A stretch of 64,000 nucleotides of DNA from Gemmatimonadota bacterium (GTDB lineage Bacteria; JAAXHH01): positions 19,211-83,210 of the forward strand of contig VXTP01000030.1 of NCBI GenBank assembly GCA_009837395.1, written 5' to 3'. Below, in pieces: positions 10,957 through 33,858 of this stretch. A model generated the notes under the pieces. The model was not told the origin of the DNA. It saw nothing but the letters and a program-made list of their open reading frames with translations, and did not search any database. Position numbers and translations under genes: made by a program. The stretch's first letter is position 1. Each line of letters opens with the position of its first letter.

Positions 10957-12057
10957 CTACCGGTCTCGGTCCGCTCTGTAGGTTTCCATCGCATCCATGT
11001 TCAGCGAGACGCCCAGGCCGGGCCGGTCGGACACACGGATCCGTCCGCCTTCGATCCTTTCCGGCGGTTCGATGAGTTCGTGTCTCCACGGCACCTCTCC
11101 CCAGGCGTATTCCAGGACCTGAAACTCCGGATGGGCGGCCATGGCCTGCACGCCCGCCGCGATGGTCAACGGCCCGAAGGGTCCGTGCGGCGCGGTCGGA
11201 ATACCCCGGCCCTCCGCCATGGCGGCGACCTTCTTCAGTTCCCATAACCCACCCACGATCGTCACGTCCGGCATGATGACGTCCATCAGCCCCTGGTCCA
11301 GGACGGGCCAGAACCCCTCACGGTACATCAGGCTCTCGCCTCCTGCCAGCGGTACGTCGATGTGATCTTTAACGGTCCTGTAGCCTTCGTGGTCTTCGTC
11401 GGGCACGGGTTCCTCGTACCAGTACAGGTCCAGATCCCTGAGCGCGTCGAAGACCTCGCACCCGCCCCGGGCGGTGAAGTGGCTGTGGCAGTCGATCAGC
11501 AGGGACACGTCCGGACCGATCGCGGCGCGCACCGCTTCCATGCAGGCGATGCCCTCCCGGGCGTCCGAAGCCCGGTCGATGCCGGCAGGCATCCCGTCGA
11601 AGGGCGCGAGTTTCACGGCGTCGAATCCGTCCGCGACCGCGGCGGCCGCGTTCCGGGCGAACCCCGCGGGCGTGCGGTCGGTGGTGGCCCGGTTGATGTT
11701 GGCGTAGAGGGGGATCTCATCGCGGAAACGACCCCCGATGAGGTCGGCCGCCGGCACGCCCAGGACCTTGCCCTTGATGTCCCACAGGGCCTGGTCCAGG
11801 GCGCTCAACGCCATCACTTTAGGCCGGTCGACATGCGAAGGGAGGAGATCAGCCAGGATGCGTTCGATGGCGCCGGGATCGCGGCCGGCCAGCACGGGTT
11901 CGACCTGCTGCAGGAAGTCCACGCTCCCGGATCGCGCGCCCCCGGGATTCACCTCGCCATAACCGGTGATCCCCTTGTCGGTGTGCACCGCAAGGAACGT
12001 CCAGTCTCCCCGGTGATTCACGTGGACGGCGTGGGTCTGCAGGGCGGTTATCTTCAT
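10957..12057 (-). CDS. enolase-superfamily enzyme (mandelate racemase/muconate lactonizing enzyme family; acid-sugar dehydratase-like)
   Basis: It has the ALWDIKGKVLGVP (KxK) motif, a TIM-barrel metal-ligand region (LIDCHSH, YEEP) and is 366 aa. Confidence 0.85.
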   Translation of the reverse strand: MKITALQTHAVHVNHRGDWTFLAVHTDKGITGYGEVNPGGARSGSVDFLQQVEPVLAGRDPGAIERILADLLPSHVDRPKVMALSALDQALWDIKGKVLGVPAADLIGGRFRDEIPLYANINRATTDRTPAGFARNAAAAVADGFDAVKLAPFDGMPAGIDRASDAREGIACMEAVRAAIGPDVSLLIDCHSHFTARGGCEVFDALRDLDLYWYEEPVPDEDHEGYRTVKDHIDVPLAGGESLMYREGFWPVLDQGLMDVIMPDVTIVGGLWELKKVAAMAEGRGIPTAPHGPFGPLTIAAGVQAMAAHPEFQVLEYAWGEVPWRHELIEPPERIEGGRIRVSDRPGLGVSLNMDAMETYRADRDR

Positions 12058-12104
12058 GGTCTAACGCTACATTCTGTCATTGATTACGGCAACGCATTTG
12101 TTTA

Positions 12105-12173
12105 TATAACGCCTTGGCCGGGCCGTCTATAACGCCTTGGCCGGGGCGCCTATATTGCCTTGGCCGGGCCGGT
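12105..12173. repeat. 23-bp tandem repeat x3 (TATAACGCCTTGGCCGGGCCGTC) in divergent promoter region
   Basis: The units are at 12105-12127, 12128-12150 and 12151-12173. The array lies between the enolase-family gene (minus, start 12057) and the SDR gene (plus, start 12279). Confidence 0.85.
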
Positions 12174-12278
12174 GGTATTTGGTATCCTGCGGCCCAGGCA
12201 GCGTATCAGCAAAAAGAATTACATAACCAAACAGAAGTCCGACAGCCGACAACGAGTTTGTTAGACGAAGGGAGTGGC

Positions 12279-12983
12279 ATGAGTGCGCAACGCGTAGCGG
12301 TCATCACGGGAGCGGGACGCGGCATGGGAGCCGCCATCGCGAGGAACCTGGCCGGCCAGGGGTGGGCCGTATCGCTGCTGTCCCCCTCCGGGGCGGCGGA
12401 ATCACTCGCCGGTGAACTGGGCGGCATCGGCGTAACAGGGTCCGTCACGGACGAGGACGACCTGCGGAAACTGGTGGACCTGACCATGGACGCCCACGGA
12501 CGCATCGACGGCGTCGTCAACAGCACGGGACATCCGCCCAAGGGCGATCTCCTGGACATACCGGACGAAGACTGGCACGAGGGACTGGACATCGTGTTCC
12601 TCAACGTGGTGCGCATGACGCGCCTCGTCACCCCGATCATGACGGACCAGGGCGGCGGATCGATCGTAAACATCTCCACTTACGCCACCTTCGAACCGGA
12701 ACATTACTTTCCCGTTTCGACCGCCTTTCGGGCGGCCCTGGCGAGTTATACGAAGATCTACGCGGACAACCATGCCGGGGACAACATCCGGATGAACAAC
12801 ATCCTGCCGGGGTTCATCAACAGCCTCCCGGAATCGGAGGCCTTCAGGTCGCGCATTCCCATGGGACGTTACGGCACCGTGGAAGAGATCGCGGAAACGG
12901 CCGCTTTCCTGCTGTCGCCCGGAGCCGGCTATATCACCGGGCAGAACCTGCGCGTCGACGGGGGCATCACGCGTTCGGTCTAA
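12279..12983 (+). CDS. SDR family oxidoreductase
   Basis: The N-terminus VAVITGAGRGMGAAIA carries TGxxxGxG, with an NSTG and Y..K catalytic region. I used the internal ATG at 12279, which has a GAAGGGAG ribosome-binding site. The upstream track extension spans the repeat region. Confidence 0.85.
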   Translation: MSAQRVAVITGAGRGMGAAIARNLAGQGWAVSLLSPSGAAESLAGELGGIGVTGSVTDEDDLRKLVDLTMDAHGRIDGVVNSTGHPPKGDLLDIPDEDWHEGLDIVFLNVVRMTRLVTPIMTDQGGGSIVNISTYATFEPEHYFPVSTAFRAALASYTKIYADNHAGDNIRMNNILPGFINSLPESEAFRSRIPMGRYGTVEEIAETAAFLLSPGAGYITGQNLRVDGGITRSV

Positions 12984-12998
12984 GCGATCCACTCGTCG

Positions 12999-13754
12999 AT
13001 GGAGAGGGAGCTCATGGAACAGGCCGACCTGGCGTTCTTTCGTCAGAACGGATTCATCAACCTTGGTAAGGTCCTCGCGGACGAAGAGGTGGATCGTTTT
13101 CGCGATCTCTTCGACGAAGACCGCCGCAAGTTCCCCTATTTCTGGCATCCCTACGGCCACCACCAGGAGGCCAACTACGACGCCCTCGTCACCACGCCTG
13201 CCTTCGACGACCTGATCCGCCATCCCGCCATCTACGGCACCATCGAGGAACTGATGGGCGGTCCGCTCTGTTTCGGAGAGATCGGGCTGCGGTCCATGGG
13301 ACCGTACAAGGGCGAGTTCCACCAGCGCTGGCACCGTGACAAGGCCCACTGGCTCGACCATCCCCTCCGCATGGACTACATCCAGCTCATGGTCTATTTC
13401 ACCGACGTGGACGAGGATACCCACTGCTTCTCCATCTCGCCCGAAGGGGTCGATCAGCCTGTCCTGAAGGAGAGTAGCGCACAACTGGAGCGGGGTGTCT
13501 ACGACCTCCACGGGCCGGCGGGTACCTGCGCCTTGTTCAACGTATCGGTGCTCCACACGGCCACCACGCGTCCCACGCGGGCCGTGCGGAAGACCGCCCA
13601 GATCTACTACGGCCACCGGGACCGGGCACCGCTGGCCAATGATTCGGGGATACCCGCCACCCTCTGGCGGGACAGCGACGACCCGGAAACCCGGGCCTTC
13701 TATGGCGTCCTGAACGAACGCACTAAGCTCTACATGGCGGCTTTTGGGGGGTAG
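12999..13754 (+). CDS. phytanoyl-CoA dioxygenase (PhyH) family Fe(II)/2-oxoglutarate oxygenase
   Basis: The WHRD..H motifs (HQRWHRDKAHW..H) are typical of PhyH. An alternative start at 13014 has a GGAGAGGGAG ribosome-binding site. The gene follows the SDR gene after a 15-nt gap. Confidence 0.8.
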   Translation: MERELMEQADLAFFRQNGFINLGKVLADEEVDRFRDLFDEDRRKFPYFWHPYGHHQEANYDALVTTPAFDDLIRHPAIYGTIEELMGGPLCFGEIGLRSMGPYKGEFHQRWHRDKAHWLDHPLRMDYIQLMVYFTDVDEDTHCFSISPEGVDQPVLKESSAQLERGVYDLHGPAGTCALFNVSVLHTATTRPTRAVRKTAQIYYGHRDRAPLANDSGIPATLWRDSDDPETRAFYGVLNERTKLYMAAFGG

Positions 13755-13771
13755 GCGGGAACGTCCTGCGA

Positions 13772-14194
13772 TCAGACGAACTCCAGATCTCCTGCGTCAT
13801 TGACCCGCCGATAGTAGCAACCGGTCCGGTACTGGCCATCGCTGTCCTTCGTATGACAAGCACCGCCGCCCTGGGGCGTCACGAGAAAGACCACGGAATT
13901 CTGCTCGCAGTTAATGCGGACTTCATCGATTCCCAGCGCATTTCCCGATGTGGCGCCCTTGACCCACAGCTCGTTACGCGACGTGCTCCAGAACGTGGCG
14001 ATCCCGGTCTTCAGGGATTCGTCCAGGGCCAGGCGGTTGATGTAGGCCAGGATCAATACTTCCTTCGTAGACGAATCCTGCACGACTACCGGCAGGACGT
14101 CCTCCTCGATGCCCGCGATCTGCCTGAGTTTCGAGAAATCGAGGGATTCCTTCGATCCCTCTTCCAGGTGATCGGATCCTGATGATGTCGCCAT
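13772..14194 (-). CDS. hisI: phosphoribosyl-AMP cyclohydrolase
   Basis: The 140-aa product reads VVQDSSTKEVLILAYINRLALDESLKTGIATFWSTSRNELWVKGATSG, which matches the HisI signature. Confidence 0.85.
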   Translation of the reverse strand: MATSSGSDHLEEGSKESLDFSKLRQIAGIEEDVLPVVVQDSSTKEVLILAYINRLALDESLKTGIATFWSTSRNELWVKGATSGNALGIDEVRINCEQNSVVFLVTPQGGGACHTKDSDGQYRTGCYYRRVNDAGDLEFV

Positions 14195-14204
14195 GGTTTC
14201 TCCA

Positions 14205-14241
14205 AGTATCTACAAAGTGTCTACAGAGTATCTACAAAGTG
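14205..14241. repeat. imperfect 12-13-bp tandem repeat x3 (GTATCTACAAAGT) just upstream of hisI
   Basis: The sequence is agtatctacaaagtg-tctacagag-tatctacaaagtg. It begins 11 nt upstream of the hisI ATG on the minus strand. Confidence 0.7.
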
Positions 14242-14298
14242 CGGTTGTGAGAGAGCGGCGCAGGGATATACGGGCAGATTAAATGCGCCTGTGATCTG

Positions 14299-15045
14299 TT
14301 ATTGCAAATGATCGTCCGCCGCATGGCGGGCGCCGACGCCCTTCTGCATGCGCATAAGCTGCTTCTGTCGGGGTGAAAGCCCTTCGAACCACTCGTCCCG
14401 GAAACCATCGTGGGGATCGAGCTGGAAGAGGAGCATGGACTTGCGGTAATGCCCGAACAGGGCGTGGCGGTTGCGGTCGGTGGTATTCGCTCCGCCGCCG
14501 TGCCAGCACTGTCCGTTGAAGATCAGCACGCTGCCCTCGGAAGCCTCGGGTTGATACACGTGCGGCACTTCCATGCCCTCCGGCGGACCCGCCCATCCGC
14601 TCTTGTGTGAACCGGGGACGATGCGCGTGCCGCCGATCGCCGCGTCGAAATCGTCCAGCATCCAGACGGTGTTCATCATCACGGGGGAAACCGGGTTCAA
14701 CATGTGCTGGGGTATGTCGCTGTGGAAGTCCTGGTAGCCGTCCCCCGGACGCACGATGCGTGAACTCAGGCTGCCCAGCACCAGGGTCTTGTCCAACATC
14801 CTCTCCAGGATGGGCAGCACGACGGGGTGATCGACGATCTGGAGAAACACCGGGTCGAGCGTGGGCAGGTTCCGCACCAGCAGCGACGTGCCCCCGCGGT
14901 TCTCGTAACCGGCCTCGCCGTGTGCCGCGGCTACGCGGATCAATGACTCGCGAAGCTCACGTACCTGGGATGCTGTCAGCACATCGGGCAACAGAGTGAA
15001 GCCGAAGGTGTTGATTTCGGCGAGGGCCTGATCGAAGGCATCCAT
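14299..15045 (-). CDS. phytanoyl-CoA dioxygenase (PhyH) family oxygenase
   Basis: It has a H-x-D...H facial-triad context (DFHSDIP, HGGG) and is 248 aa. Its start overlaps the stop of the upstream DLH gene by 1 nt (TGATG). Confidence 0.8.
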   Translation of the reverse strand: MDAFDQALAEINTFGFTLLPDVLTASQVRELRESLIRVAAAHGEAGYENRGGTSLLVRNLPTLDPVFLQIVDHPVVLPILERMLDKTLVLGSLSSRIVRPGDGYQDFHSDIPQHMLNPVSPVMMNTVWMLDDFDAAIGGTRIVPGSHKSGWAGPPEGMEVPHVYQPEASEGSVLIFNGQCWHGGGANTTDRNRHALFGHYRKSMLLFQLDPHDGFRDEWFEGLSPRQKQLMRMQKGVGARHAADDHLQ

Positions 15046-15899
15046 CAGTCGCTTCCGATGGTGCGCTTGAGATAGGCCTTCAACCGCTCCCAGGCGTCCA
15101 GCGCGGGTTCCTCGTTCTTCGGATCGCGCTCCACGTACAGCCAGAACCCGTGGTTGACGTCGTCGTAGATGTGCACGTCGTTCTCCACGCCGGCCTGGCG
15201 GAGCGCGGCGACGAAGCCTTCCACCTGTTCGGGGGAGGGGCCGCGGTCGAGTCCGGCGAAGGTGCCGTAGACCTCGTGGTGTATGGCGCTCAGCCTTTCG
15301 GGATCGTCGAGCAGGCGCCCGTAAAAGATGGCGGTGGCGTCATGGTTCTCGCCGCCCAGGGCGTAGCTCAGGGCGACCCCGCCGCCGTAGCACCAGCCCA
15401 TGGCACCGATCTTGCCGTTCACGTCCGGCCGCGATCTCAGGTAGGCTGCCGCCGCGTCCAGGTTGCGGATGATCTTGTCCATGTCGGCCAGCGTTTCCCG
15501 CACGAGCGCCATGTTCTCGTCGCGGTTGCTCCCCGTCCGGCCCGAATACAGATCGGCCGCCAGGGCGACGTAGCCCTCCGCGGCCAGCGCGTCGGCCACC
15601 TGCCTTACGCGGTCCACCAGGCCGTTCCATTCGTGGATCAGGATGACGGCGCCCCGGGGACCCGGCCCTTCCGGCTCGGCGAGATAACCCCTGGTCGCCT
15701 GGTCTTCATCGAAATAAGCCAGGTCGCCGCCGCGGGGCGCGCCGGCCTCGCCGAGAATGGCATCGGGGATCTCGCCCTCGGTCGTCGGCGCGTGCGGTAT
15801 CTGCTGCCCGTGGATCGCCAGTGCCGCAACGGCGAGGATGATGAACGCAGCGAACGAAAAAGGCATCGAAATTCGCCTGCTGGATGTTATTCCGGCCAT
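15045..15899 (-). CDS. dienelactone hydrolase family protein, secreted (alternative start 15866 MPFSF..)
   Basis: It has an alpha/beta-hydrolase GWCYGG nucleophile elbow and DLH-like ILIHEWNG. The N-terminus MAGITSSRRISMPFSFAAFIILAVAALA is signal-like with an RR. The 349-aa track ORF is trimmed. Confidence 0.75.
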   Translation of the reverse strand: MAGITSSRRISMPFSFAAFIILAVAALAIHGQQIPHAPTTEGEIPDAILGEAGAPRGGDLAYFDEDQATRGYLAEPEGPGPRGAVILIHEWNGLVDRVRQVADALAAEGYVALAADLYSGRTGSNRDENMALVRETLADMDKIIRNLDAAAAYLRSRPDVNGKIGAMGWCYGGGVALSYALGGENHDATAIFYGRLLDDPERLSAIHHEVYGTFAGLDRGPSPEQVEGFVAALRQAGVENDVHIYDDVNHGFWLYVERDPKNEEPALDAWERLKAYLKRTIGSD

Positions 15900-16083
15900 G
15901 ATGTTAACCCCTCTTTCAAACCGGGAGGCCCCGCTCCGAGAATACGGATCGAAAGCCCCGCGGGTATTTACTGTTTTCCATGCACGACGAGTTTCAATAT
16001 ACTTATCGAAACGAAGCGAATCAATCGTGAAATCCTTCGAGATAACCACCTTCCCTATCACGTATTTCCCCGCGGGAGACCCC

Positions 16084-16839
16084 ATGAAAAACAAACTGAA
16101 AGAGAAGCTGCGAAACGGCGAAGTTACCTACGGCATATCCGTCGGCACGCCCTGTAACGACATCGTGGAGCTGGCGTCTAACCTGGCCTTCGACTGGATA
16201 TGGTTCGATGGCGAACACGGCCCGTTGAATACAGAGATCCTTCATCCCATGATCCAGGCGACCCGGGGCCGGGACGTCACCCCGCTCGTCCGCGTGCCGT
16301 GGAACGACATGGTGCATATCAAGAAGGCGCTGGACATCGGGGCGGAAGGCCTGATCATTCCCTGGGTCAACAACCGGGAGCAGGCGGAGTACGCCGTCCG
16401 CTCGGCCAAGTATCCGCCCATGGGCATCCGCGGAATGGGTGCCCGCTTCCTCAATACCGCCGGACTCGATCTGGCCGAATACCTCCGCACCGCCAACGAA
16501 GAAACGTTCATCATGGTCCAGATCGAAACGGTCGAAGCCGTGGAGAACATGGACGACATACTCACCACGCCCGGCGTCGACGCTTTCCTGGTCGGACCGA
16601 ACGACCTCGCGGCCTCCCATGGCTACGTGGGCCAGCCGACGCATCCGGAGATGGAAAAGATCGTCAAGGGAATCATGGACCGTGGAAAGGAACTCGGCGT
16701 GCCTGGCGGATACGCGTTCATCTCGAAGGACGCCAACCGGAAGCGGATCGCGGAGGGCTTCCAGTGGATCACCCTCGGAAGCGATATGGGGTTCCTGGCC
16801 CAGGCGGCCCGGGCGGCGCTCGCCGAGGTGGGCAGGTAG
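16084..16839 (+). CDS. HpcH/HpaI family 2-keto-3-deoxy-acid aldolase
   Basis: The sequence MKNKLKEKLRNGEVTYGISVGTP..VRVPWND..IETVEAVENMDDI..GPNDL fits the HpcH/HpaI family. I used the internal ATG at 16084. The upstream track extension crosses an AT-rich divergent promoter. Confidence 0.85.
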   Translation: MKNKLKEKLRNGEVTYGISVGTPCNDIVELASNLAFDWIWFDGEHGPLNTEILHPMIQATRGRDVTPLVRVPWNDMVHIKKALDIGAEGLIIPWVNNREQAEYAVRSAKYPPMGIRGMGARFLNTAGLDLAEYLRTANEETFIMVQIETVEAVENMDDILTTPGVDAFLVGPNDLAASHGYVGQPTHPEMEKIVKGIMDRGKELGVPGGYAFISKDANRKRIAEGFQWITLGSDMGFLAQAARAALAEVGR

Positions 16840-16848
16840 CCTATCGGA

Positions 16849-18192
16849 TCAGTCCCCGTTCCGGTCTTTCGAAAGCCGGCGGCGAATGGCCATGGCGTGG
16901 GCAGACAGGCCTTCGGCTTCGGCAAGCCGGATCGCGGCCGGCCCCAACCGTTTTTCCGCCTTTTCGTTAACGGCGAACAGACTGGTGATCTTCAGGAAAT
17001 CCCGGACGCTCAAGGGAGAATGGAACCGGGCGCTGCCCCCGGTGGGCATGATGTGGCTGGGACCGGTGACATAGTCGCCCAGGGCCTCGGAGGAATGCTC
17101 ACCCACGAAGATCCCCCCGGCGTTTTGAATCCCGTCCACCAGCGGCCAGGGATCCGCCACCAGCAGGCACAGGTGCTCCGGCGCGTAGCTGTTTGCCAGT
17201 TCGCACGCCTCTACCAGGTCCGATACGAGCACGATCCCTCCGTTCCGTGCCAGGGAGGAACGGATAATGTCCGCCCGGTCCAGCTCGGAAAGTTGCTCCT
17301 CCACGGCCTGTTGCACCGCCAGGGCCAGCGCGGACGACGGCGTGATCAGTATGGCGCTCGCCATCGTATCGTGCTCGGCCTGCGCCAGCAGGTCGGCCGC
17401 CGCGAGGTCCGGACCGGCCGTCTCGTCGGCGATGAGCAGGGTCTCGGTGGGGCCGGCGAGCTGGTCGATATCCACGATACCGTACACCTGGCGCTTGGCC
17501 AGAGTCACGAAGACGTTTCCCGGCCCCACGATCTTGTCGACATGGGGAACCGTTTCGGTGCCATGGGCTATCGCCGCGATCGCCTGGGGCCCGCCGATCC
17601 GGTAGACCGCGTCCGCGCCCGCCACGGAAGCCGCGGCCAGCACGGCGGATGGCACCGCGCCGTCCCTTCCGGGCGGCGTGACCACGACGACCTCCCGGAC
17701 GCCCGCGACCCGGGCGGGGATCACGGCCATCAGCAGCGAGGAGGGATAGGCCGCGCCACCGCCGGGCACGTAGACGCCCACCCGGTCCAGCGGCCGGACG
17801 ATCTGGCCGGTTCCACCCTCTTCGTCCCAGTGCGTCCAGGACCCGGCCGACTGCCGCCCGTGAAAAGTCCGTATGCGGCCGGCCGCGGTCTCCAGGGCAT
17901 CGAGCAACCCGGAAGGCAGCGATGCGGCCACCTCGTCGATTTCGGATCGGGGGACCTCGAAAGTGTCCGGGGCGCTTCCGTCCAGCAGACGGGCGTACTT
18001 CCTGATCGCATCATCCCCGTTGTCTCTAACGTCGTTGACGATGCGGGCTACTGCCTGTTCCGCCGTCAGGGGCTCGCCGAAGAGTTCCCGGTTCCGCGCT
18101 TCGATCTCCGGCGTGTGCATGGCTTCGTTCAGCGGCCGCCGCCGCAGGATGCTCGACCCGGCCTCTTCGGCGGACAGTATCCGGATGTTCAT
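16849..18192 (-). CDS. hisD: histidinol dehydrogenase
   Basis: [36 protein letters not shown] is the HisD signature, and the 447 aa length fits. Confidence 0.9.
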
Positions 18193-18211
18193 CTTCCCCT
18201 CACTGGTTTGT

Positions 18212-19264
18212 TCATGAGGTATTCCTCGTCGCGGTCCTCAGTGGCGCCAGCGCCTCGAGTATGGGACCACAACCGAATTTCACGCAGTCCGTCGCCGGGA
18301 GCCCGGTCTCCCCTTCGACCCGGTCCACTTCCCGCCTGGCATCGTCCATGGACATGCCGAAGCAGTTGAGCGATACGGCCACGACACGGCACGGGAACAG
18401 GGGCCGGGCAATGTTCTCGTGGGCGGTTATCATCTCCGCGTAGGACGGCACGGCCACGGGAAGGTTGCGCATCACTTCCCTCCCCGGCTGATGACACAGT
18501 ACCAGGGCCTGCGGGGCCGCCCCGTGAAGCAGACCGAGCGATACGCCCGAATAGGAAGGATGCAGAATCGTACCCTGCCCTTCGATGACCAGCAGTTCCC
18601 GATGCTTGCGTTCCAGCACGAGTCTTTCCACCGCGCCCGAGATGTAGTCCGCCGCCACGGTATCCACCGCGATGCCCGATCCGGCGATCATGATGCCGGT
18701 CTGCCCGGTAGCCACGAACTCGGCGTCCCAGCCTGCCTCGCGGGCCGCGCGGTCGATTTCGATCGCGGCGATCTTCTTGCCGATGCTGGAGTCGGCGCCG
18801 ACGGTCAGCACACGCAGGTTGGGGAGGGCGTGGGCCAGGTGCCGCCCCACGTCCAGGTCTCCGGGCGGCTGCCGCACGTCCCACAACCGCACGCCTTTCC
18901 GCCCGGCATGCCGGGCGAACGCCTCGTCCTCGTTGAGAAAAGTATGCAGCCCGTTTACCACCTCGAGCCCGTGCTCGATGGCCTCATGGATGACTTCCCG
19001 CCAGGCGTCGGGCAAAACGCCCCCCGGCGTCGCGATGCCGATGACCAGCGACGTCGGTTCGAAGGTCATCGCATCCTGCAGGGTCGAAACGACCGGGATG
19101 CCCTTACCCACCTCGAGCACGTCTTCGAGTTTCCTTCCGGCGTGCACGCTGTCGAGCACCGCCACGGTCTCGTCGGACTTGTAGCGGACCAGTGACGCGG
19201 CCGTCTTGGAGGAGAACGTGCCCAGTTGGCCCTCGGTGAGAATGACCATTCGCCTGAATTGCAT
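18212..19264 (-). CDS. DUF1611 domain protein (Rossmann-like N-domain plus P-loop-like C-domain)
   Basis: The 350-aa product has the VILTEGQ..KTA..LVRY architecture typical of DUF1611. Its start codon lies inside repeat unit 1. Confidence 0.7.
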   Translation of the reverse strand: MQFRRMVILTEGQLGTFSSKTAASLVRYKSDETVAVLDSVHAGRKLEDVLEVGKGIPVVSTLQDAMTFEPTSLVIGIATPGGVLPDAWREVIHEAIEHGLEVVNGLHTFLNEDEAFARHAGRKGVRLWDVRQPPGDLDVGRHLAHALPNLRVLTVGADSSIGKKIAAIEIDRAAREAGWDAEFVATGQTGIMIAGSGIAVDTVAADYISGAVERLVLERKHRELLVIEGQGTILHPSYSGVSLGLLHGAAPQALVLCHQPGREVMRNLPVAVPSYAEMITAHENIARPLFPCRVVAVSLNCFGMSMDDARREVDRVEGETGLPATDCVKFGCGPILEALAPLRTATRNTS

Positions 19265-19309
19265 GTTATTCGCCTGAGTTGCGAATTACTCGCCTGGGTT
19301 GCGAATTCC
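19248..19309. repeat. 21-bp tandem repeat x3 (ATTCGCCTGARTTGCRAATTA) spanning DUF1611 start
   Basis: The units are at 19248-19267, 19268-19289 and 19290-19309. The ATG at 19262-19264 falls within unit 1. Confidence 0.8.
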
Positions 19310-19318
19310 CGCCGATCC

Positions 19319-20350
19319 TCAGCTCATCGAAACGACGCGGCCGGTTTCCAGGGATTCCGTTGCGGCGTCCAGTACCTTCATCAGCGCCAGCATCTCGTGG
19401 GGCTGGATGGCCAGTTCGGCGCCGTCGGCCAGCACGGCCGCGATGTTCCGGTAGTAGTCCTCCCAACTGCCTTTCACCGGATCCAGGATCATCTCCTCTA
19501 CCGACCCGTCCCGCTCCGCCGCCACCCGGACACGGTCTTCGGGTGCCTCCACCGCGTCCTCGATCCTGCCCTTCTTCATCCAGTCCTCCTGGGGATCGAG
19601 TCCTGTCTTTACGAGGGATCCCCGGGTACCCAGCACGTACCAGTGGGGCTTGGATATATGCGACAGATTGCTGATTTCCATCCGGTACTCGGCACCCGTT
19701 TCGAAATAAAGCGTGCAGTTGACATGATCTTCTATGTCCCCTTCCCACACGCGTTTGTGGCCTTTGCAGTGGACTGCCGCGGGGCGGCCGGCCAGCAGTT
19801 GCAGGCCCTGGTCGACCAGGTGGGCGCCCCAGTCGTAAAGCAGGCCGCCGCTGTCCGCCCGGCTTGTCCGCCAGCCCCTGGATGCCCGGAACCGGTGCAC
19901 CGCCCTTTCGACCAGGAAGGGATCACCAAGCAGACCATCCTCTATTGCCTTGCGCACGGTCAGATAGCCCCAGTCCCAGCGGCGGTTGTGGAAGACGCTC
20001 AGCATGACCCCGCGCCGCCGGCTGACCGCGATCATTTCCTCGGCTTCGGCGGCCGACATGCACATGACCTTGTCGACGACCACGTGTCTTCCGGCCTCCA
20101 TGGCCTCAATGGCCAGGGACGCGTGGGTATGGTGAGGCGTGGCCAGAATAACCAACCGGATGCCGTCGTCCGCAAGGAGATCGGTCAGCGTCTCATGAGT
20201 ATCCACGGACCAGTCCCGACGCGCCTGCGCACGGCGTTCCGGGTCCCGGCTGGCAACGGCAGTGAGTTGCAGCCCCTCGGTCCGCGAAACCAGGTAGGCG
20301 TGAAAAAGCCGTCCCGCCAGTCCGTAGCCCACGATGCCCGTTTGTATCAT
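19319..20350 (-). CDS. Gfo/Idh/MocA family oxidoreductase
   Basis: MIQTGIVGYGLAGRLFH plus a C-terminal alpha/beta dimerization domain fit the family. I used the internal ATG at 20350. Confidence 0.85.
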   Translation of the reverse strand: MIQTGIVGYGLAGRLFHAYLVSRTEGLQLTAVASRDPERRAQARRDWSVDTHETLTDLLADDGIRLVILATPHHTHASLAIEAMEAGRHVVVDKVMCMSAAEAEEMIAVSRRRGVMLSVFHNRRWDWGYLTVRKAIEDGLLGDPFLVERAVHRFRASRGWRTSRADSGGLLYDWGAHLVDQGLQLLAGRPAAVHCKGHKRVWEGDIEDHVNCTLYFETGAEYRMEISNLSHISKPHWYVLGTRGSLVKTGLDPQEDWMKKGRIEDAVEAPEDRVRVAAERDGSVEEMILDPVKGSWEDYYRNIAAVLADGAELAIQPHEMLALMKVLDAATESLETGRVVSMS

Positions 20351-20464
20351 GACGATTCCCCACTGCCATACACACGCCCACGCCCGCATCCGCGTCCTCC
20401 GCCCCGCCGGTTATGCGGGGGACAATATACGGGATGGGCCGGATGCATGGCAAACGCGAATTGG

Positions 20465-20492
20465 GTGGACTATAATGTCCGTGACAATCCAC
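20465..20492. promoter_or_regulatory. TATAAT hexamer embedded in inverted repeat (GTGGAC-TATAAT-GTCC..ATCCAC); candidate -10 plus operator for sulfatase gene
   Basis: The sequence gtggactataatgtccgtgacaatccac lies about 90 nt upstream of the sulfatase ATG at 20581. Confidence 0.3.
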
Positions 20493-20580
20493 CGGCGGCT
20501 CACTAATTTGCCGTTTCGACCGTCTTTAGGCCGCACCTTCCGATCTCACACCGGGTAACTACCCGATCCCGAGGCCCATC

Positions 20581-22032
20581 ATGGCCACATCGCGACCGAA
20601 CGTGCTCTGCATCCTCACCGACGACCAGGGCGTCTGGGCGGCGGGTTGTTACGGCAACGGGGAAATCCGCACGCCGAGCATCGACCGGATCGCGGAGACC
20701 GGGGTTCGCTTCGATCGTTTCTTCGTGGCTACGCCCGTCTGCTCCCCCAGCCGCGCGACGCTGCTTACCGGCCGCATCCCCTCCCAGCATGGCGTGCACG
20801 ACTGGATCAAGGGAGGCAATGTCGGCGAGGGCGCTGCTTCCTACCTCGAAGGAGAAACGGCGTATACCGATGTGCTCGCGGCCCACGGCTGGCGATGCGG
20901 CCTCAGTGGCAAGTGGCACCTGGGCAACAGCACCCTGCCCCAGCACGGGTTCTCCCACTGGTTCACCCACCAGTTCGGCGGCGGCCCCTACAATGATGCG
21001 CCCATGGTCCGGAACGGCGTCCCGGTCACCGAGCCGGGGTACGTCACGAACGTCATTACCGACGATGCGCTGGCCTTCATCGACCGCCACGCCAACCAGG
21101 ATGATCCGTTCTACCTGGGCGTCCACTACACCGCGCCGCACAGTCCGTGGACCGGACATCCGCAGGATATCGTCGATTCCTACGACGGCTGCCCTTTCGT
21201 TTCCTGCCCCCAGGAACCCATACACCCCTGGGCGGGCGGCCTGACCCGCGAATGCATGGGTAACCGGGAAAGCCTGCAGGGCTACTTCGCGGCCGTCACG
21301 GCCATGGACCTCGACGTCGGCCGGTTACTCGACCGGCTCGATCATCACGGCATCCGCGAAGACACCCTGGTGGTCTTCCTGAGCGACAACGGTTTCAGCC
21401 TGGGGCACCACGGGTTCTGGGGCAAGGGCAACGGAACCAGCCCGTTGAACATGTACGAGAACTCCATCCTGGTGCCTGCGATTGTCAGCCAGCCCGGACG
21501 CCTGCCCGAAGGCGCCGTGCAGCCGGCGATGATCAGCGCCTACGATTTCATGCCCACGCTCCTGTCCTACCTGGATCTGCCCGTGCCCTGGGACCGCAAC
21601 CTGCCGGGGCGTAATGCCCTGGACGCCTGGATGTGCGGGGCGGCACGGCAAGCTCGGACGGACCAGGAAGACCAGCCAGCCAGGGGCAACGCGTCCGACG
21701 CCGGCCGGGACCACGTCGTGGTATTCGACGAATACGGCGGCACGCGCATGATCCGCACCGAATCGTGGAAATACATACACCGGTATCCCGACGGACCCGA
21801 CGAACTGTACGACCTGGAAAACGATCCCGACGAACGGGCGAATCTCGCGGACGATGCCGGTTATGCCGACAGGCGCCGGTCGCTCCGCGGCGAGTTGGAG
21901 GGCTGGTTCGAACGTTATGCCGACCCGGACCGGGACGGCCGCACCAGGCCGGTCTCCGGCGCCGGCCAACTGCGACCCGTGGGCGGCGCGTGGGATGACG
22001 ACTCGCCGGATTTCGAACAACTGAAATCGTGA
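20581..22032 (+). CDS. sulfatase (formylglycine-dependent, CSPSR motif), no signal peptide
   Basis: It has the LCILTDDQG..TPVCSPSRATLLTGR catalytic core and a C-terminal sulfatase domain. It is 483 aa. Confidence 0.9.
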   Translation: MATSRPNVLCILTDDQGVWAAGCYGNGEIRTPSIDRIAETGVRFDRFFVATPVCSPSRATLLTGRIPSQHGVHDWIKGGNVGEGAASYLEGETAYTDVLAAHGWRCGLSGKWHLGNSTLPQHGFSHWFTHQFGGGPYNDAPMVRNGVPVTEPGYVTNVITDDALAFIDRHANQDDPFYLGVHYTAPHSPWTGHPQDIVDSYDGCPFVSCPQEPIHPWAGGLTRECMGNRESLQGYFAAVTAMDLDVGRLLDRLDHHGIREDTLVVFLSDNGFSLGHHGFWGKGNGTSPLNMYENSILVPAIVSQPGRLPEGAVQPAMISAYDFMPTLLSYLDLPVPWDRNLPGRNALDAWMCGAARQARTDQEDQPARGNASDAGRDHVVVFDEYGGTRMIRTESWKYIHRYPDGPDELYDLENDPDERANLADDAGYADRRRSLRGELEGWFERYADPDRDGRTRPVSGAGQLRPVGGAWDDDSPDFEQLKS

Positions 22033-22043
22033 AGGAGAACTCG

Positions 22044-22805
22044 ATGGCTGACACCAAAATCGCCGTTACGCTCTATACGTTGCGCGACTTCGTGCAGACG
22101 CCGGCCGACATCGCGGACACCCTGAAGAAAGTAAAGTCCATCGGTTATGATCATATTCAGCTTTCGGCCCTCGGTCCCGTCGATCCCGCGGAACTCGGCA
22201 GCATGATCCGTGACGCGGGACTGAAGGTCTGCGCCACGCACGTGCCCTTCGAACGCCTGCAGGATGAACCGAACAGCGTGATCGAGGAGCACCACCTCTG
22301 GGGATGCGAGCATATCGCCGTCGGGTCCATGCCGCGGTCCTACTGGGACGACCCGGACGGGTTCTCCCGGTTCGCGGCGGACGCGTCGGTCGTGGCGCTC
22401 AGGCTGAAAAAAGCCGGCATGTCCTTCAGCTATCACAATCACCATACGGAACTCGTGCGAGTCGGCGACCGGACGGGCCTGGCCATCCTGGTGGAGAAGA
22501 GCGATCCCGCCCTGTGCTTCGAGATCGACACCTACTGGATCCAGTACGGCGGGGGTGATCCGATCCACTGGATCGAACGGGTAAGCAACCGGTGCCCGGT
22601 CATCCACTTCAAGGACCTGGGCGTGTCGGGCAGGGAGCAGGTGATGGCCGAGATCGGCGAGGGGAACATGAACTGGTCCGGCATCGTCGCCGCCTGCGAG
22701 ACCGCCGGGGCCCAGTGGTACGTGGTCGAGCAGGATACCTGCGCCGGTAATCCCTTCGACAGCATCGCCATCAGCTATCGCAACATGAACGCCATGGGAC
22801 TTTGA
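22044..22805 (+). CDS. sugar phosphate isomerase/epimerase (xylose isomerase-like TIM barrel)
   Basis: It has AP-endonuclease-2/TIM-barrel motifs (EHIAVGS, HNHH, EIDTYW). I chose the ATG at 22044, which has a GAAGGAG ribosome-binding site 6 nt upstream. The track starts at the GTG at 22029. Confidence 0.8.
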   Translation: MADTKIAVTLYTLRDFVQTPADIADTLKKVKSIGYDHIQLSALGPVDPAELGSMIRDAGLKVCATHVPFERLQDEPNSVIEEHHLWGCEHIAVGSMPRSYWDDPDGFSRFAADASVVALRLKKAGMSFSYHNHHTELVRVGDRTGLAILVEKSDPALCFEIDTYWIQYGGGDPIHWIERVSNRCPVIHFKDLGVSGREQVMAEIGEGNMNWSGIVAACETAGAQWYVVEQDTCAGNPFDSIAISYRNMNAMGL

Positions 22806-22845
22806 AGATCCTTCCGGTCACCACGTATACCGATACGAGGACAAC

Positions 22846-23625
22846 ATGATCGACCTTTCAGGCAAGACGGCGCTGATCAGCGGTTCCTCCCGCGGAATCG
22901 GCAAAGGGATCGCACTGGAAATGGCCCGCGCCGGGGCGGACGTCGCCGTCAACTACTTCCGACACCGGGACGACGGCGAGGCCGTAGCGGACGAAATCCG
23001 CGCCATGGGGCGGCGGGCGGTCGTCATCGGCGCGGACGCGTCGGACCGGTCCGCCGTGGACGAGATGGTGGAACAGACCGCCGAGGATCTCGGCGGGCCC
23101 GATATCGTCGTGGCCAATGCCTACTATTCCACGCGGGAGCCCTTTCTCGAGATGGACGTGGATGAACTGCGGAAAACCTACGATGTCAGCCTCTTCGGCG
23201 CCTTCCACGTCGCCCAGGCCGGTGCCCGGAAGATGGCGGCCGGAGGGAAGGGCGGCAGCATCCTCTTCATCAGTTCGGTCATGTCCTTCCTGCCTTTCCC
23301 TACGTCGCTCGCCTACTCTTCGGCCAAGGCCGGCATGAACCACATGGCGGCCATCATCGCCCTGGAGCTGCTGGAGCACCGCATCCGCGTGAACGTGATC
23401 GAACCCGGGTGGACCGACACGCCCGGCGAGCGCCAGTACTCCACGGAGCAGGAACTCGAGGAGGGCGGCAGGCGGCTTCCCTGGGGCCGGATGGGCACCA
23501 TCGAGGACCTGGGCAAGGCCGCCACCTTTCTTTGTTCCGACGCCGCGGACTACATCACCGGAGAAGTCCTGCGCGTAGACGGTGGATTCTGGCTGAAGCG
23601 CGGCACGGCCTCCATCAAGGAGTGA
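22846..23625 (+). CDS. SDR family oxidoreductase (FabG-like)
   Basis: It carries GSSRGIGKG, NAY, S..YSSAK motifs and is 259 aa. Confidence 0.85.
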   Translation: MIDLSGKTALISGSSRGIGKGIALEMARAGADVAVNYFRHRDDGEAVADEIRAMGRRAVVIGADASDRSAVDEMVEQTAEDLGGPDIVVANAYYSTREPFLEMDVDELRKTYDVSLFGAFHVAQAGARKMAAGGKGGSILFISSVMSFLPFPTSLAYSSAKAGMNHMAAIIALELLEHRIRVNVIEPGWTDTPGERQYSTEQELEEGGRRLPWGRMGTIEDLGKAATFLCSDAADYITGEVLRVDGGFWLKRGTASIKE

Positions 23626-23680
23626 ATTCCCGCGCGACCGGGCTGGATCACTCGGGCCAACCCCCCGACAGGGCCGGGAC

Positions 23681-23730
23681 AGTCCATGTCAGACCATGCC
23701 AGACCAGGCTAGACCAGGCATGACCAAGCT
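23681..23730. repeat. 10-bp tandem repeat x5 (AGACCAGGCN) covering candidate start codons of large membrane protein A
   Basis: The units are agtccatgtc, agaccatgcc, agaccaggct, agaccaggca and tgaccaagct. In-frame ATGs at 23696 and 23720 lie in the units. Confidence 0.8.
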
Positions 23731-25669
23731 GACCACGAAACCCATATCCCTTAAAACCGCCGGCCTGGGTCTGGCCTTCGCCTGTTTCGTCGCCTTCTGG
23801 GGACAGCACGCCTCCGCACAGCTGAACTACAACTATCTGACCTTCCCCCAGATGCCGCTGTGCCTGGTCATTCCCTTCGTCTTCCTGGTCCTTCTTCCGA
23901 ACGTACTGATCCGCGCCATAAACCGGGACGCCGCGCTCACGAGGCCGGAACTCCTGGTCATCTTCGCCATGGGGATGATCGCGGCCATGGTCCCCGACTG
24001 GGGCATGGTCCGCTATCTCATCAGCGTCATCACCGCGCCGCACTACTTCGCCAGCCCGGAGAACCAGTGGGAGGCGCACTTCTTCGCCTACCTGCCGGAA
24101 TGGGCGGTCATTCCCAATGACAAGGGGCAGGTTTCCGATTTCTTCGCGGGACGGCCATCCGGTCTGCCCATACCCTGGCAGGACTGGGTCATCCCACACT
24201 TCTGGTGGATGTCGGCCCTGGGCGCGCTGCTCTTCATCGGCGCCTGCCTGGTCGTGATCTTCCGGAAGCAGTGGGTGGAACACGAACGGCTTCAGTTTCC
24301 CATGGGCGAGGTGGTGCTCCGCCTGCTCGAGGCCGAACAAGGCGCATCCGGGCAGTCCGGGAGGTGGCCGGCCCTCTTCGGTAACCGGCTTTTCCAGGTC
24401 GGCTTCGCAGCCAGCCTGGCCGTCATGACCTGGAACATCATCGGCTTCTGGGGCGTGCTGCCCCACATCCCCCTTCCCGGTCCGGTATACAACGTGGTCA
24501 TCGACCCGGCCTACCCGCCCATCGCCATCCGGCTCGTGCCCTACGTGCTGTGTTTCGCCTTCTTCGTCAATGTCGAGATCCTCTTCAGCGTCTGGTTCTT
24601 CCAGGTGCTGGGCATTCTGGAAACCGGCCTGCTCAACCGTTTCGGCGTGGTTTCGCCTGCCGAGACGATCGTGCCCCGCGGCCTGGTGGCCATCCAGTTC
24701 TGCGGCGGACTGATCATGTTCGCCCTGATCAGCGTCTGGATGGCCCGGAAACATATCCGAAACGTCCTTCGAAAGTCCCTCGGCAGGGAAAGCGACCTGC
24801 GCGACGAAAATGAAATGTTCTCCTACCGCACGGCGGTCATCGGCCTGGTACTGGGTCTGCTCTTCATGACCGCCTGGCTGCACGCCATCGGGTTCTCCGT
24901 CCCCGTCGCCCTGCTCTTCCTGTTCCTCCTGCTGGTGTTCTATTTCGGTATCGCGCGCATCCTCGCCGAAGCGGGCCTGATCAACCTCGATCTGCCGATC
25001 AACGCCCATGCCTTCACGGTGGGGATGGTGGGCTCGGCCAACCTGTCGGGGTCGACGCTGACCGGTCTCGGACTGACCAACGCCTTCGCGCGGAACTGGC
25101 GGACCTTTACGATGGTCGGGCTTTCACACGTCGCCTTCTGGCGGAACTATCTCGGGGAGAACCGCGGACGGCTGTTCCTGCTCGTGATGCTCGCGTTCGT
25201 CTGCGGGACGGCGATTTCGACGGGGTACGTCGTCTACTCAGGTTACGCGGAGGGGGCGGACAACCTGCATATCAACCTGCGCAACACGGGGAACCTGTTC
25301 TTTGACCTGGTAGTGAAGTGGATGAAGAACGCCACGCAGGTCACCGCCCTCGAAATCCTGTTTCTAACGGTCGGCATGGCCGTAAGCAGCCTGCTGGCCC
25401 TGGGCCGGTACCTCTTCTACTGGTGGCCGCTCAATCCCATCGGGTTCGCCATCGGGGCCTCGGCGCCCATACGGGGGCTCACCTTCACCCTCTTCGTCGC
25501 CTGGCTCGTTCAGGTCATCCTGCTCCGCATCGGCGGCGTAAGGCTGTACCGGAAAGCGCAACCGCTGTTCCTGGGCATCCTCGTCGGATACGTAGTCGGG
25601 GTCCTGGCCGCCTACATCGTCGATACGATTTACTTCCCGGACACGCCGCACATCACCGAGATCTTCTAG
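23696..25669 (+). CDS. large polytopic membrane protein A, unknown family (paralog of 25676..27634)
   Basis: The product is about 650 aa with at least 14 hydrophobic helices. Conserved blocks shared with the convergent paralog include QWVEHERLQFP, the region around NVEILFSVWFFQ and a C-terminal YFPDTPHITEIF. The start may be the ATG at 23720 (MTKLTT). Confidence 0.75.
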   Translation: MPDQARPGMTKLTTKPISLKTAGLGLAFACFVAFWGQHASAQLNYNYLTFPQMPLCLVIPFVFLVLLPNVLIRAINRDAALTRPELLVIFAMGMIAAMVPDWGMVRYLISVITAPHYFASPENQWEAHFFAYLPEWAVIPNDKGQVSDFFAGRPSGLPIPWQDWVIPHFWWMSALGALLFIGACLVVIFRKQWVEHERLQFPMGEVVLRLLEAEQGASGQSGRWPALFGNRLFQVGFAASLAVMTWNIIGFWGVLPHIPLPGPVYNVVIDPAYPPIAIRLVPYVLCFAFFVNVEILFSVWFFQVLGILETGLLNRFGVVSPAETIVPRGLVAIQFCGGLIMFALISVWMARKHIRNVLRKSLGRESDLRDENEMFSYRTAVIGLVLGLLFMTAWLHAIGFSVPVALLFLFLLLVFYFGIARILAEAGLINLDLPINAHAFTVGMVGSANLSGSTLTGLGLTNAFARNWRTFTMVGLSHVAFWRNYLGENRGRLFLLVMLAFVCGTAISTGYVVYSGYAEGADNLHINLRNTGNLFFDLVVKWMKNATQVTALEILFLTVGMAVSSLLALGRYLFYWWPLNPIGFAIGASAPIRGLTFTLFVAWLVQVILLRIGGVRLYRKAQPLFLGILVGYVVGVLAAYIVDTIYFPDTPHITEIF

Positions 25670-32538: not shown

Positions 32539-32776
32539 GATCTACCTCCATTCGTGGTCCATGCCGCATCCCATACACTAGTTCAACCTTTCGGAAACAT
32601 AAATTAACGTGCCTTGGCACGAGGTGAACAGTTTAAACGGTCGCTAACGGCTGGTGAAGTGGAATAAGTACTTGACGGGTTAAAATGTATCGGTAGTGTA
32701 ACTGTTTGATTTGTAGACATACAGTACGAAAGAGTATTTAAGGAATGAGTCCTCTCAAGTCGCTGGAGGTGTGTAA

Positions 32777-33832
32777 TTGTTGCGGATACCAGTTTCCCTA
32801 CTGTGTGCTATAATCCTGGCTTGCTCAGGCGATTCCAGTCCTGTTGCCGACTCAGGTCCCGCACCCCAGGAACGTACGGTGCAAACCATTCATCCTGTTC
32901 TGGGCGTCCGTATCGCCGAAGAGGTCGATGACGATTCCTATGACAGAGATGACTACGACTACCCCGGTTCAATTGAGGCTGATATCGTAAATCGACAGGG
33001 CGGGTTGTATTCTCCCTACTCGCTTAATTGCTTCGATTCCGCTACCGAAACGGATATTGAACATGTCGTTGCAACCGCCGAGGCACATGCCAGCGGCATG
33101 TATGCCAGGACAGAGGAAGATCGCAGTGCCTATGCCAAAGACCTGGACAACCTCACCCTGGCTGCGCCTGGCGTAAACAGAAATCAGAAATCCGACAAGG
33201 ACCCGGCGGAATGGATGCCGGAGAACAACAGATGCTGGTATGTAGGCAAGTGGGTGGAAATCAAGAAGAAGTACAATTTGACCATGGACCAGGCCGAAGC
33301 GGATTCTGTTGCTGCAGTCTATCAGGAATGTGATTCCTTCGATATGATCGTACCCGTCTGTGCCGCGGGTCTGGCCGAGTCCGACTACTATGATTTCAGA
33401 TGGAGCAGGTGGGGCGACAGCAAGGAGGAAGTACAAACGACGGAACTCGACACCCTGACATACAGCCAGGCAGATTCCACCCGGGAGACCGGAGCGGTCA
33501 CGGGATTGTTGCAGTTCAGTGATGAGATATCCGACACGGTAACGGTATCGTACTTGTTTTCGGACAACGCCCTCAGTTCAGGATCGTATGCGTTTGCTTC
33601 AGATGTGCCATCCAGCAGACAGGACTCCATTCAATCCCTTCTTGATGAACGTTACGGTGTTCGTGAAGAAGCAGATGGGTATACCTATTGGAGGCGAAAT
33701 GAACGCACATGGGTACGTCTATATGCCGCGACACAAGACGACCCAATGCGTATCGTCTATTTAGAAAGGTCAACCGGCAGCGATTCCGACTATAACGATC
33801 TGCCTCTGCGCGTCGTTATACCAGAAGAATAA
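32777..33832 (+). CDS. lipoprotein with DUF1524-type His-Me finger (HNH-like) nuclease domain
   Basis: The lipobox LLCAIILAC-SG is followed by a DUF1524 motif (DIEHVVA..NLTLAAPGVNRNQKSDKDPAEWMP). The gene GC is about 52% against about 66% for its flanks. The TTG start has a GGAGG ribosome-binding site. Confidence 0.65.
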   Translation: MLRIPVSLLCAIILACSGDSSPVADSGPAPQERTVQTIHPVLGVRIAEEVDDDSYDRDDYDYPGSIEADIVNRQGGLYSPYSLNCFDSATETDIEHVVATAEAHASGMYARTEEDRSAYAKDLDNLTLAAPGVNRNQKSDKDPAEWMPENNRCWYVGKWVEIKKKYNLTMDQAEADSVAAVYQECDSFDMIVPVCAAGLAESDYYDFRWSRWGDSKEEVQTTELDTLTYSQADSTRETGAVTGLLQFSDEISDTVTVSYLFSDNALSSGSYAFASDVPSSRQDSIQSLLDERYGVREEADGYTYWRRNERTWVRLYAATQDDPMRIVYLERSTGSDSDYNDLPLRVVIPEE

Positions 33833-33858
33833 ACAGTTGAATAAACACCCGCTTTGTC

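Follow-up and report, generated by a model that had tools for sequence, protein, structure and literature searches.

A conserved divergent gene cluster with a predicted cytoplasmic sulfatase and a putative importer in a Gemmatimonadota bacterium

Do catabolic genes that lie side by side in a bacterial genome form a pathway, or are they only neighbours? A block at positions 10957-23625 of a 64,000-nucleotide (nt) stretch of a Gemmatimonadota bacterium (assembly GCA_009837395.1, contig VXTP01000030.1, positions 19,211 to 83,210; the whole stretch is called the window here) raises this question. An initial annotation read the block, rich in PhyH dioxygenases, sulfatases and Gfo/Idh/MocA oxidoreductases, as a pathway for a hydroxylated or sulfated small molecule, perhaps choline-O-sulfate or a betaine. 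That observation is largely correct, wrongly bounded, and confirmed in part. The block is not one pathway, and only about half of it is linked beyond neutral synteny. The linked half, extended to a membrane-protein gene just past the block's right edge, is a conserved bidirectional locus. The reading we favour, to which we give about an even chance of being right, is an uncharacterised locus for taking up a sulfated glycoside or sugar, desulfating it in the cytoplasm and breaking it down by redox/beta-elimination chemistry.

The window has a G+C content of about 63%, which makes raw lists of open reading frames (ORFs) noisy, so genes were picked by codon-position GC. Coding-type ORFs were then annotated with Pfam and NCBIfam profile searches, which place every gene family named by the initial annotation where it had been reported.

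Synteny of the conserved core

By orthology, the conserved core is window 16084-25669. Its genes are given here, followed by two genes outside it that are needed below.

16084-16839, plus strand: HpcH aldolase, 251 amino acids
16849-18192, minus strand: hisD (TIGR00069), last gene of the Gfo-DUF1611-hisD operon
18212-19264, minus strand: DUF1611 protein, with DUF1611_N and DUF1611 domains
19319-20389, minus strand: Gfo/Idh/MocA oxidoreductase (Gfo), first gene of the leftward operon
20581-22032, plus strand: sulfatase, with Sulfatase and SGSH_C domains
22029-22805, plus strand: AP_endonuc_2 TIM barrel
22846-23625, plus strand: SDR2, with an adh_short_C2 domain
23696-25669, plus strand: DUF6785/DUF6784 membrane protein, 657 amino acids, last gene of the rightward operon
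25676-27634, minus strand: second DUF6785/DUF6784 paralog, convergent with the first and in its own transcription unit
37243-38787, minus strand: second sulfatase (CAPGR motif), outside 10957-23625

The core therefore comprises HpcH, a leftward operon (Gfo-DUF1611-hisD) and a rightward operon (sulfatase-TIM-SDR2-DUF6785). Neighbouring genes of the leftward operon are 19-54 nt apart, with hisD starting 19 nt past the DUF1611 stop and thus directly downstream of it, as first described; the sulfatase gene touches or overlaps the TIM gene. Two earlier statements do not survive this map. The lack of a canonical transporter is a boundary artefact, since the DUF6785/DUF6784 gene lies directly downstream of the block on the same strand, and the picture of tight units gives way to about seven transcription units of alternating orientation.

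We anchored the synteny analysis on DUF1611 and compared about 45 related loci. Metagenome-assembled genomes of about 3.7-4.0 Mb supply the closest DUF1611 proteins (84-95% identity). Their depositors label them Gemmatimonadota, Latescibacterota or "bacterium", and the isolate names (IRC1_bin, APA_bin, Plut_) suggest an origin in sponges and corals. The whole block keeps its order in 19 species-level genomes (at least 84% identity), and so do the housekeeping flanks (AhpC, CMD, UvrC and an Sdh membrane subunit). The flanks are likewise collinear in a lineage at 75% identity (L029, L040). Block collinearity in close relatives therefore says nothing about function, and we discarded the synteny of the 19 genomes as functional evidence.

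An informative locus, for our purposes, is one where DUF1611 is 63-74% identical and the flanks have nothing in common with those of the window. Core synteny with such unrelated flanks is found in L002, L027, L028, L036, L037, L043 and L044. The following layouts illustrate the range, including two loci where only three of the genes are together.

L027 and L036: amidase; DUF6785-SDR-TIM-MFS-sulfatase; Gfo-DUF1611-hisD-Ldh_2-PHP-Metallophos
L037: amidase; DUF6785-SDR-TIM-MFS-sulfatase; Gfo-DUF1611-hisD-Ldh_2; HpcH; PhyH
L002: the order of L037 minus the amidase, with the sulfatase decayed to two fragments
L028: TIM-MFS-sulfatase; Gfo-DUF1611-Ldh_2; HpcH; PhyH; no hisD
L034 and L035: Gfo-DUF1611-hisD alone, among unrelated genes

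Across the distant loci, reciprocal BLAST puts HpcH, hisD, DUF1611, Gfo, sulfatase, TIM, SDR2 and the first DUF6785 protein at 57-79% identity. Gfo is 57-66% identical in all of them, the TIM barrel 61-76% and SDR2 74-79%; DUF6785 keeps its position in L002, L027, L036 and L037, at 65-72% identity, and HpcH is 68-82% identical to its counterparts in L002, L028 and L037 over 251 amino acids. Sulfatase orthologs at 64-74% identity occur under several phylum labels. The older lineages have an MFS gene between TIM and sulfatase, and an Ldh_2 gene is added to their leftward operon (overlapping hisD by 8 nt in L002 and L027). Genes scattered individually, with no conserved linkage in related genomes, would by the initial annotation's own test speak against a pathway. 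The right half is not scattered in this way (its core is kept in L002, L027, L028, L036 and L037), whereas the left half is conserved solely alongside collinear housekeeping flanks.

The two core operons diverge from a 191-nt gap. A consensus scan between Gfo and the sulfatase gives promoter-like sites at 20424-20476, TTGCCA-18-TATATT on the minus strand and ATGGCA-18-TATAAT on the plus strand, and both promoter-like blocks are conserved, together with a TGTCACG element, in an alignment of 24 intergenic regions. The full element, ATTGTCACGGACAT (20475-20488), sits just downstream of the sulfatase-side -10 box, and its TGTCACG core is kept even in the lineage at 63% identity. Between DLH (a dienelactone hydrolase gene of the left half) and HpcH, back-to-back promoter-like sites at 15975-16024 are consensus matches only. 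A shared operator linking the block promoters was considered and rejected because no common element was found. The window contains no Rfam family match and no tRNA.

These data bear on the idea that there is no pathway at all. The block would then be a mosaic of small independent units drawn from massively expanded families (sulfatase, PhyH, Gfo/Idh/MocA, SDR, DUF6785), and its synteny would be accidental. The alternating units with hisD and hisI interspersed, the lone trio in L034, the loss of the sulfatase in L002, the left half kept only with its housekeeping flanks and the several DUF6785 paralogs per genome in these lineages all fit a mosaic. Accident is harder to reconcile with seven to eight orthologous genes that hold order and orientation at 57-79% identity between flanks unlike those of the window, or with a conserved divergent promoter region. 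We therefore consider a mosaic unlikely as an account of the core, while still giving it appreciable weight.

Sulfatase, carbohydrate-type enzymes and putative importer

The block sulfatase has a CSPSR motif, matches PF00884 at 160 bits and has no N-terminal hydrophobic segment, features which identify it as a predicted cytoplasmic Cys-type S1 sulfatase. Its best solved relatives are a GlcNAc-6-sulfatase (5g2v) and a mucin-desulfating sulfatase (7p24), and it scores 159 against a cutoff of 433 with the choline-sulfatase model TIGR03417. The second sulfatase, with its CAPGR motif, marginally passes that model (441). The initial annotation counted both as signal-less sulfatases of the block; neither has an N-terminal hydrophobic segment, but just the first lies inside 10957-23625. 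The second belongs to a minus-strand group at 34935-38787, where it is followed by a Gfo/Idh/MocA protein, an HSDR_N_2 protein and PhyH3; the family composition is like that of the block, and no bet genes are nearby.

These scores weigh on the earlier proposal of marine osmolyte catabolism, in which choline-O-sulfate or betaine is broken down and hisD and hisI are recruited paralogs. The second sulfatase supports it, as does the inclusion of ectoine hydroxylase in the PhyH family (a relative's PhyH matches weakly, at 38 bits). Like choline-O-sulfate utilisation (betC, betI, betB, betA), the locus has a Cys-type S1 sulfatase without a signal peptide. However, the block sulfatase resembles carbohydrate sulfatases, Pfam and NCBIfam scans found no betA, betB, betI, choline-binding protein or choline transporter gene in the window, and the two histidine genes look ordinary (see below). 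Osmolyte catabolism is thus very unlikely here. What stands of the original proposal is that a sulfated substrate is plausible, and the core probably serves a carbohydrate-like solute that is sulfated, and not choline-O-sulfate or betaine.

The best solved relative of the TIM barrel is AtOGE (8bvk; E 1.7e-30, 31% identity over 224 residues), and histidines align at both of the AtOGE catalytic positions that have been mutated, His134 and His189. AtOGE is a Mn-dependent beta-eliminase of 3-keto-O-glycosides for which His134 and His189 mutants have been made, and operons that combine oxidation, elimination, hydration and reduction, with an oxidoreductase paired with such TIM barrels, cleave glycosides (PMC10628242). 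Gfo has B. subtilis YvaA and the C-glycoside 3-oxidase DgpA2 as its best solved relatives. SDR2 resembles a sugar 1-dehydrogenase, with 203 against a cutoff of 400 for the L-rhamnose 1-dehydrogenase model and 209 against 215 for a glucose 1-dehydrogenase subfamily model. HpcH resembles a class II pyruvate aldolase of the HpcH/HpaI family (best solved relatives HpaI, GarL and YfaU; NCBIfam HpaI 204 against 369).

Put together, these likenesses outline a possible route. A sulfated glycoside or sugar-like solute would be imported and then desulfated in the cytoplasm by the sulfatase. Gfo would oxidise the product to a 3-keto sugar, which the TIM barrel would open by beta-elimination, and the SDR and the aldolase would process the carbon skeleton towards pyruvate. 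The DUF1611 protein may N-acylate an amine. The analysis shows gene content, orthology, synteny, the protein fold and the conserved catalytic histidines; the class of substrate, the order of these reactions and the co-regulation of the two operons are what we infer from them.

The same pairing of a Gfo/Idh/MocA oxidoreductase with an AtOGE-homologous TIM barrel occurs in the GlycDH-AtOGE-AtHYD-Gfo operon of A. tumefaciens, in DgpA-DgpBC of the intestinal strain PUE and in LgdA/B/C for levoglucosan (PMC10628242). Unlike in those oxidation/beta-elimination operons, the Gfo and TIM genes here are on divergent operons, and there is neither a second TIM "hydratase" nor a flavoenzyme GlycDH. The present locus adds a predicted cytoplasmic sulfatase, an SDR, an OPT-fold protein, DUF1611 and hisD. 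Non-phosphorylative sugar-acid routes are a second point of comparison: galactonate/rhamnonate/fuconate dehydratase, YfaU/GarL aldolase and sugar 1-dehydrogenase all have counterparts within 12 kb. Here, however, no equivalog cutoff is reached by these counterparts, the dehydratase gene is outside the core, and the sole lactonase candidate (DLH) is apparently secreted.

The DUF6785/DUF6784 protein has about 13 hydrophobic helices and matches only the DUF6785 and DUF6784 models in Pfam, with no match to Pfam OPT. Its AlphaFold2 model, built with 30 homologs, has a predicted local distance difference test (pLDDT) score of 84.6 and a predicted template modelling (pTM) score of 0.86. A Foldseek search of the PDB with this model gives a single significant match, barley YS1 (7wsr, 7wst; E 9e-7, probability 1.00, TM 0.60-0.67), at only 11-12% sequence identity. 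The likeness to the OPT/Yellow-Stripe-like superfamily is thus one of fold and not of sequence, and on the strength of the model we regard the protein as a putative importer of the cluster. By blastp, the neighbouring paralog is 35% identical to it; conservation of that paralog is confined to the clade of 75% identity or more.

The DUF1611 protein is a putative N-acyltransferase of the DgcN-like type, with solved relatives 2obn and 7xrj (187 bits) and a score of 284 bits against the cutoff of 480 of the NCBIfam DgcN model (NF041892). In Planctomycetota, homologs at 52% identity have the GCV_H-DUF1611-MR_MLE-M20 context of DgcN/DgcA type. No DgcA-type racemase or M20 deacylase is beside the window gene, whose neighbours are Gfo and hisD. 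We therefore rejected membership of DgcN-DgcA D-glutamate salvage (NF041892, NF042940): the score is below the cutoff, the racemase partner is missing, and only Planctomycetota show the canonical context. Literature searches on DUF1611, DUF6785, DgcN, or PhyH with sulfatase and sponge yielded nothing useful.

Transporters of the OPT/YSL family carry peptides and amino-carboxylate chelates, so the importer and DUF1611 also suggest another reading, namely salvage of a peptide-like or D-amino-acid compound. The substrate would enter through the OPT-fold protein, DUF1611 would act as a DgcN-type N-acetyltransferase, Gfo and Ldh_2 would work on keto or imino acids, and the sulfatase would be an accessory. 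The homology to DgcN, the racemase and deacylase neighbours of the planctomycetal homologs, the Ldh_2 gene that follows in older lineages and the amidase flanking the cluster in L027, L036 and L037 are in its favour. It is weakened by the low DgcN score, by the lack of a DgcA-type racemase or M20 enzyme in the cluster and by an enolase-family gene of the left half that is galactonate-dehydratase-like (only 27 bits to DgcA). The TIM barrel, Gfo, SDR and aldolase, moreover, all have carbohydrate-type relatives. We consider peptide-type salvage improbable.

Histidine genes and the left half

The initial annotation left open whether hisD and hisI are recruited paralogs, and the profiles and alignments argue that they are not. 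For hisD, TIGR00069 gives 514 bits against a cutoff of 244, and true HisD structures (363 bits) score well above HpsN, a sulfopropanediol dehydrogenase paralog (235 bits). Alignment to 4gic and 9lbv shows that QAEH, PEH, GDY..SH and AH, which hold the Zn ligands and the catalytic Glu-His, are conserved. A His motif specific to HpsN, G-R-Y-A/S-H, discriminates HpsN from HisD (PMC11382572); the corresponding loop of the window protein reads G-G-A-A-Y, without that His. In L027 (12433-15400; also in L036 and L041), Gfo-DUF1611-hisD is followed in the operon by Ldh_2, a PHP-type histidinol-phosphatase (224 against an NCBIfam cutoff of 202) and a metallophosphoesterase. The otherwise intact L028 cluster has no hisD.

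The hisI product matches Pfam PRA-CH at 82 bits (gathering cutoff 27) and scores 102 against 126 with the NCBIfam equivalog. Its cysteines in NCE, GACH and GCYY align with the three Zn-binding Cys of 1zps, and N-C-E-Q-N replaces the canonical Mg-binding D-C-D-x-D in all 22 orthologs. This substitution raised the possibility of a degenerate or recruited paralog, which we rejected since the variant is a large subfamily: among the 150 best 50%-identity clusters, 77 have it, and some members are fused to HisG or to a GATase (HisH-like) domain. HisI function is therefore probably retained, and the gene probably encodes a monofunctional phosphoribosyl-AMP cyclohydrolase of the N-C-E-Q-N subfamily, the metal chemistry of which appears undescribed. 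As judged from their sequences, then, hisD and hisI are genuine, ordinary histidine-biosynthesis genes at the 3' ends of mixed operons. Clear orthology to a separate characterised pathway, which the initial annotation had named as a point that would count against it, is thus found for these two genes.

Two further readings depend on hisD. In the first, the locus degrades a sulfonate (2,3-dihydroxypropane-1-sulfonate or sulfolactate), with the HisD-family enzyme as an HpsN-type dehydrogenase and the relatives' Ldh_2 as a sulfolactate dehydrogenase. The match to HpsN structures and the hisD/Ldh_2 overlap could be taken this way, as could the best NCBIfam match of Ldh_2, which is L-sulfolactate dehydrogenase (235-239 bits). 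That match is below half of its cutoff of 500, however, Ldh_2 is absent from the window, and SuyAB, Xsc and a sulfite exporter are all lacking. With HisD structures outscoring HpsN and the HpsN-specific motif missing, we rejected this pathway as barely credible. In the second, Gfo-DUF1611-hisD would be a functional unit in which DUF1611 and the oxidoreductases beside it act on histidinol, histidine or a closely related amino-alcohol or amine. The operon would then be a branch or salvage path of histidine metabolism not yet described, and hisD no mere hitch-hiking housekeeping gene. Five of six lineages retain the trio intact, even where every other block gene is gone, and in older lineages Ldh_2 and the PHP-type histidinol-phosphatase follow it; we still see this as a slim prospect.

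The left half of the block carries the following genes, after correction of starts by ortholog comparison (the listed ORFs were too long for DLH, now about 284 amino acids, and for HpcH, now 251 amino acids from 16084).

10957-12057, minus strand: enolase-superfamily protein, galactonate-dehydratase-like, with MR_MLE_N/C domains; below every equivalog cutoff
about 12279-12983, plus strand: SDR1, start reset by the L001 ortholog (234 amino acids)
12999-13754, plus strand: PhyH1
13772-14194, minus strand: hisI (PRA-CH)
14299-15045, minus strand: PhyH2
15045-15899, minus strand: DLH, with an N-terminal signal-like segment

The six genes are conserved only alongside collinear housekeeping flanks, with SDR1, PhyH1, DLH and PhyH2 confined to the clade of 75% identity or more, and the left half is not linked to the core beyond neutral synteny. 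The enolase-type gene is absent from the distant loci L002, L027, L028 and L037. Its best solved relatives are putative galactonate dehydratases, and its best NCBIfam scores are for gluconate and galactonate dehydratase (218 and 213 bits, both below cutoff). SDR1 and PhyH1 form a two-gene unit (12279-13754, plus strand) at the block's periphery; the DLH stop and the PhyH2 start overlap by 1 nt, and hisI follows on that strand after another 104 nt. DLH had been called secreted, which agrees with its N-terminal signal-like segment, MAGITSSRRISMPFSFAAFIILAVAALA, and RR motif. In L001 and L012 (15782-17575), an NYN-domain gene and an AAA_14/DUF4143 gene are inserted between hisI and PhyH1, so the left half tolerates interruption. 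Leaving hisI aside, we take the left half as a lineage-specific neighbourhood of similar enzyme families which are not demonstrably in the same pathway as the core.

All three PhyH proteins encoded in the window retain HxD...H but share only 20-27% identity with one another, and those of the distant loci are only 21-25% identical to any of them by BLAST; the distant genes are therefore not orthologs of the window's. We also read the surroundings of five further sulfatase orthologs, four on contigs of 5.6-8.4 Mb (L030, L031, L046, L047) and one on a 10.7-kb Anaerolineae contig (L032). PhyH occurs within 10 kb of the sulfatase in three of the five (L030, L031, L047), including a co-directional DUF6785-PhyH-sulfatase triplet in L047 (an 8.4-Mb genome) and an enolase-family and PhyH pair in L031. 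In L032 and L046, no PhyH or enolase-family partner is near the sulfatase, and the neighbours are unrelated. The PhyH proteins near these sulfatases are 20-30% identical across lineages, compared with 65-70% for the sulfatases.

The proximity is thus a family-level association that high copy number may explain, and it does not indicate a conserved partner. Non-orthologous PhyH genes and the unrelated neighbours in L032 and L046 are what a mosaic predicts, and the adjacency of DUF6785, PhyH and sulfatase in the unrelated genome of L047 runs counter to it. PhyH as a dedicated sulfatase partner, for example an alternative formylglycine-generating oxygenase, was rejected on the same two grounds and has a very low probability. 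The neighbourhoods of these 65-70% identical sulfatases (L047 7104-11392, L030 5976-18060, L031 1941-6732) contain DUF6785 and several PhyH genes, including 580-residue forms, and also UxuA/AP_endonuc_2 TIM barrels, an enolase-family gene and a neutral ceramidase.

Housekeeping genes flank the region on both sides: pyrG, uvrC and an AhpC-like gene to the left, and sdh, metG, pdxJ, ksgA and mfd to the right. A low-GC island at about 32600-34900 (0.55 versus about 0.63), with a GmrSD_C-like restriction-endonuclease ORF (32777-33832) and a 309-residue ORF without a family match, is probably an acquired defence islet. On the minus strand at 60635-63238, ORFs of 663 and 193 residues have a good coding signature and no Pfam match.

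Weighing the sulfated-carbohydrate reading

Breakdown of a sulfated glycoside or sugar is the reading that we carry forward for the core, and several points weigh against it. The first concern its unity: L034 and L035 have the Gfo-DUF1611-hisD trio by itself, so the two core operons are separable, and in L002 the sulfatase has decayed while the remaining core genes persist. Gfo and the TIM barrel, which would catalyse successive steps, are encoded on opposite operons, and the cluster has no second TIM "hydratase". Window scans found no shared operator, local regulator or riboswitch, and the TGTCACG element does not recur at other window promoters; as the initial annotation had it, there is no transcription factor among the coding-type ORFs of the window.

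The remaining points concern chemistry. The lack of a formylglycine-generating enzyme (FGE), also noticed early, holds for the whole window, where no scanned ORF has an FGE-sulfatase, anSME or radical-SAM domain. No enzyme of the core or block reaches an equivalog cutoff save hisD, and enzyme specificities are therefore guesses. A peptide or amino-acid substrate would suit the pairing of an OPT-fold transporter with a DgcN-like enzyme no less well than a sugar would.

One lesson concerns how such genomes are read: thematic coherence of Pfam families overstates pathway unity. If the sulfated-carbohydrate reading of the core is true, the locus would give abundant uncultured sponge and coral symbionts a cytoplasmic route for consuming sulfated compounds of their hosts or of algae, and it would combine a signal-less sulfatase with redox/beta-elimination chemistry. 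It would also provide the first functional handle on DUF6785/DUF6784 proteins, as OPT-fold importers, and on DUF1611 outside the D-glutamate context.

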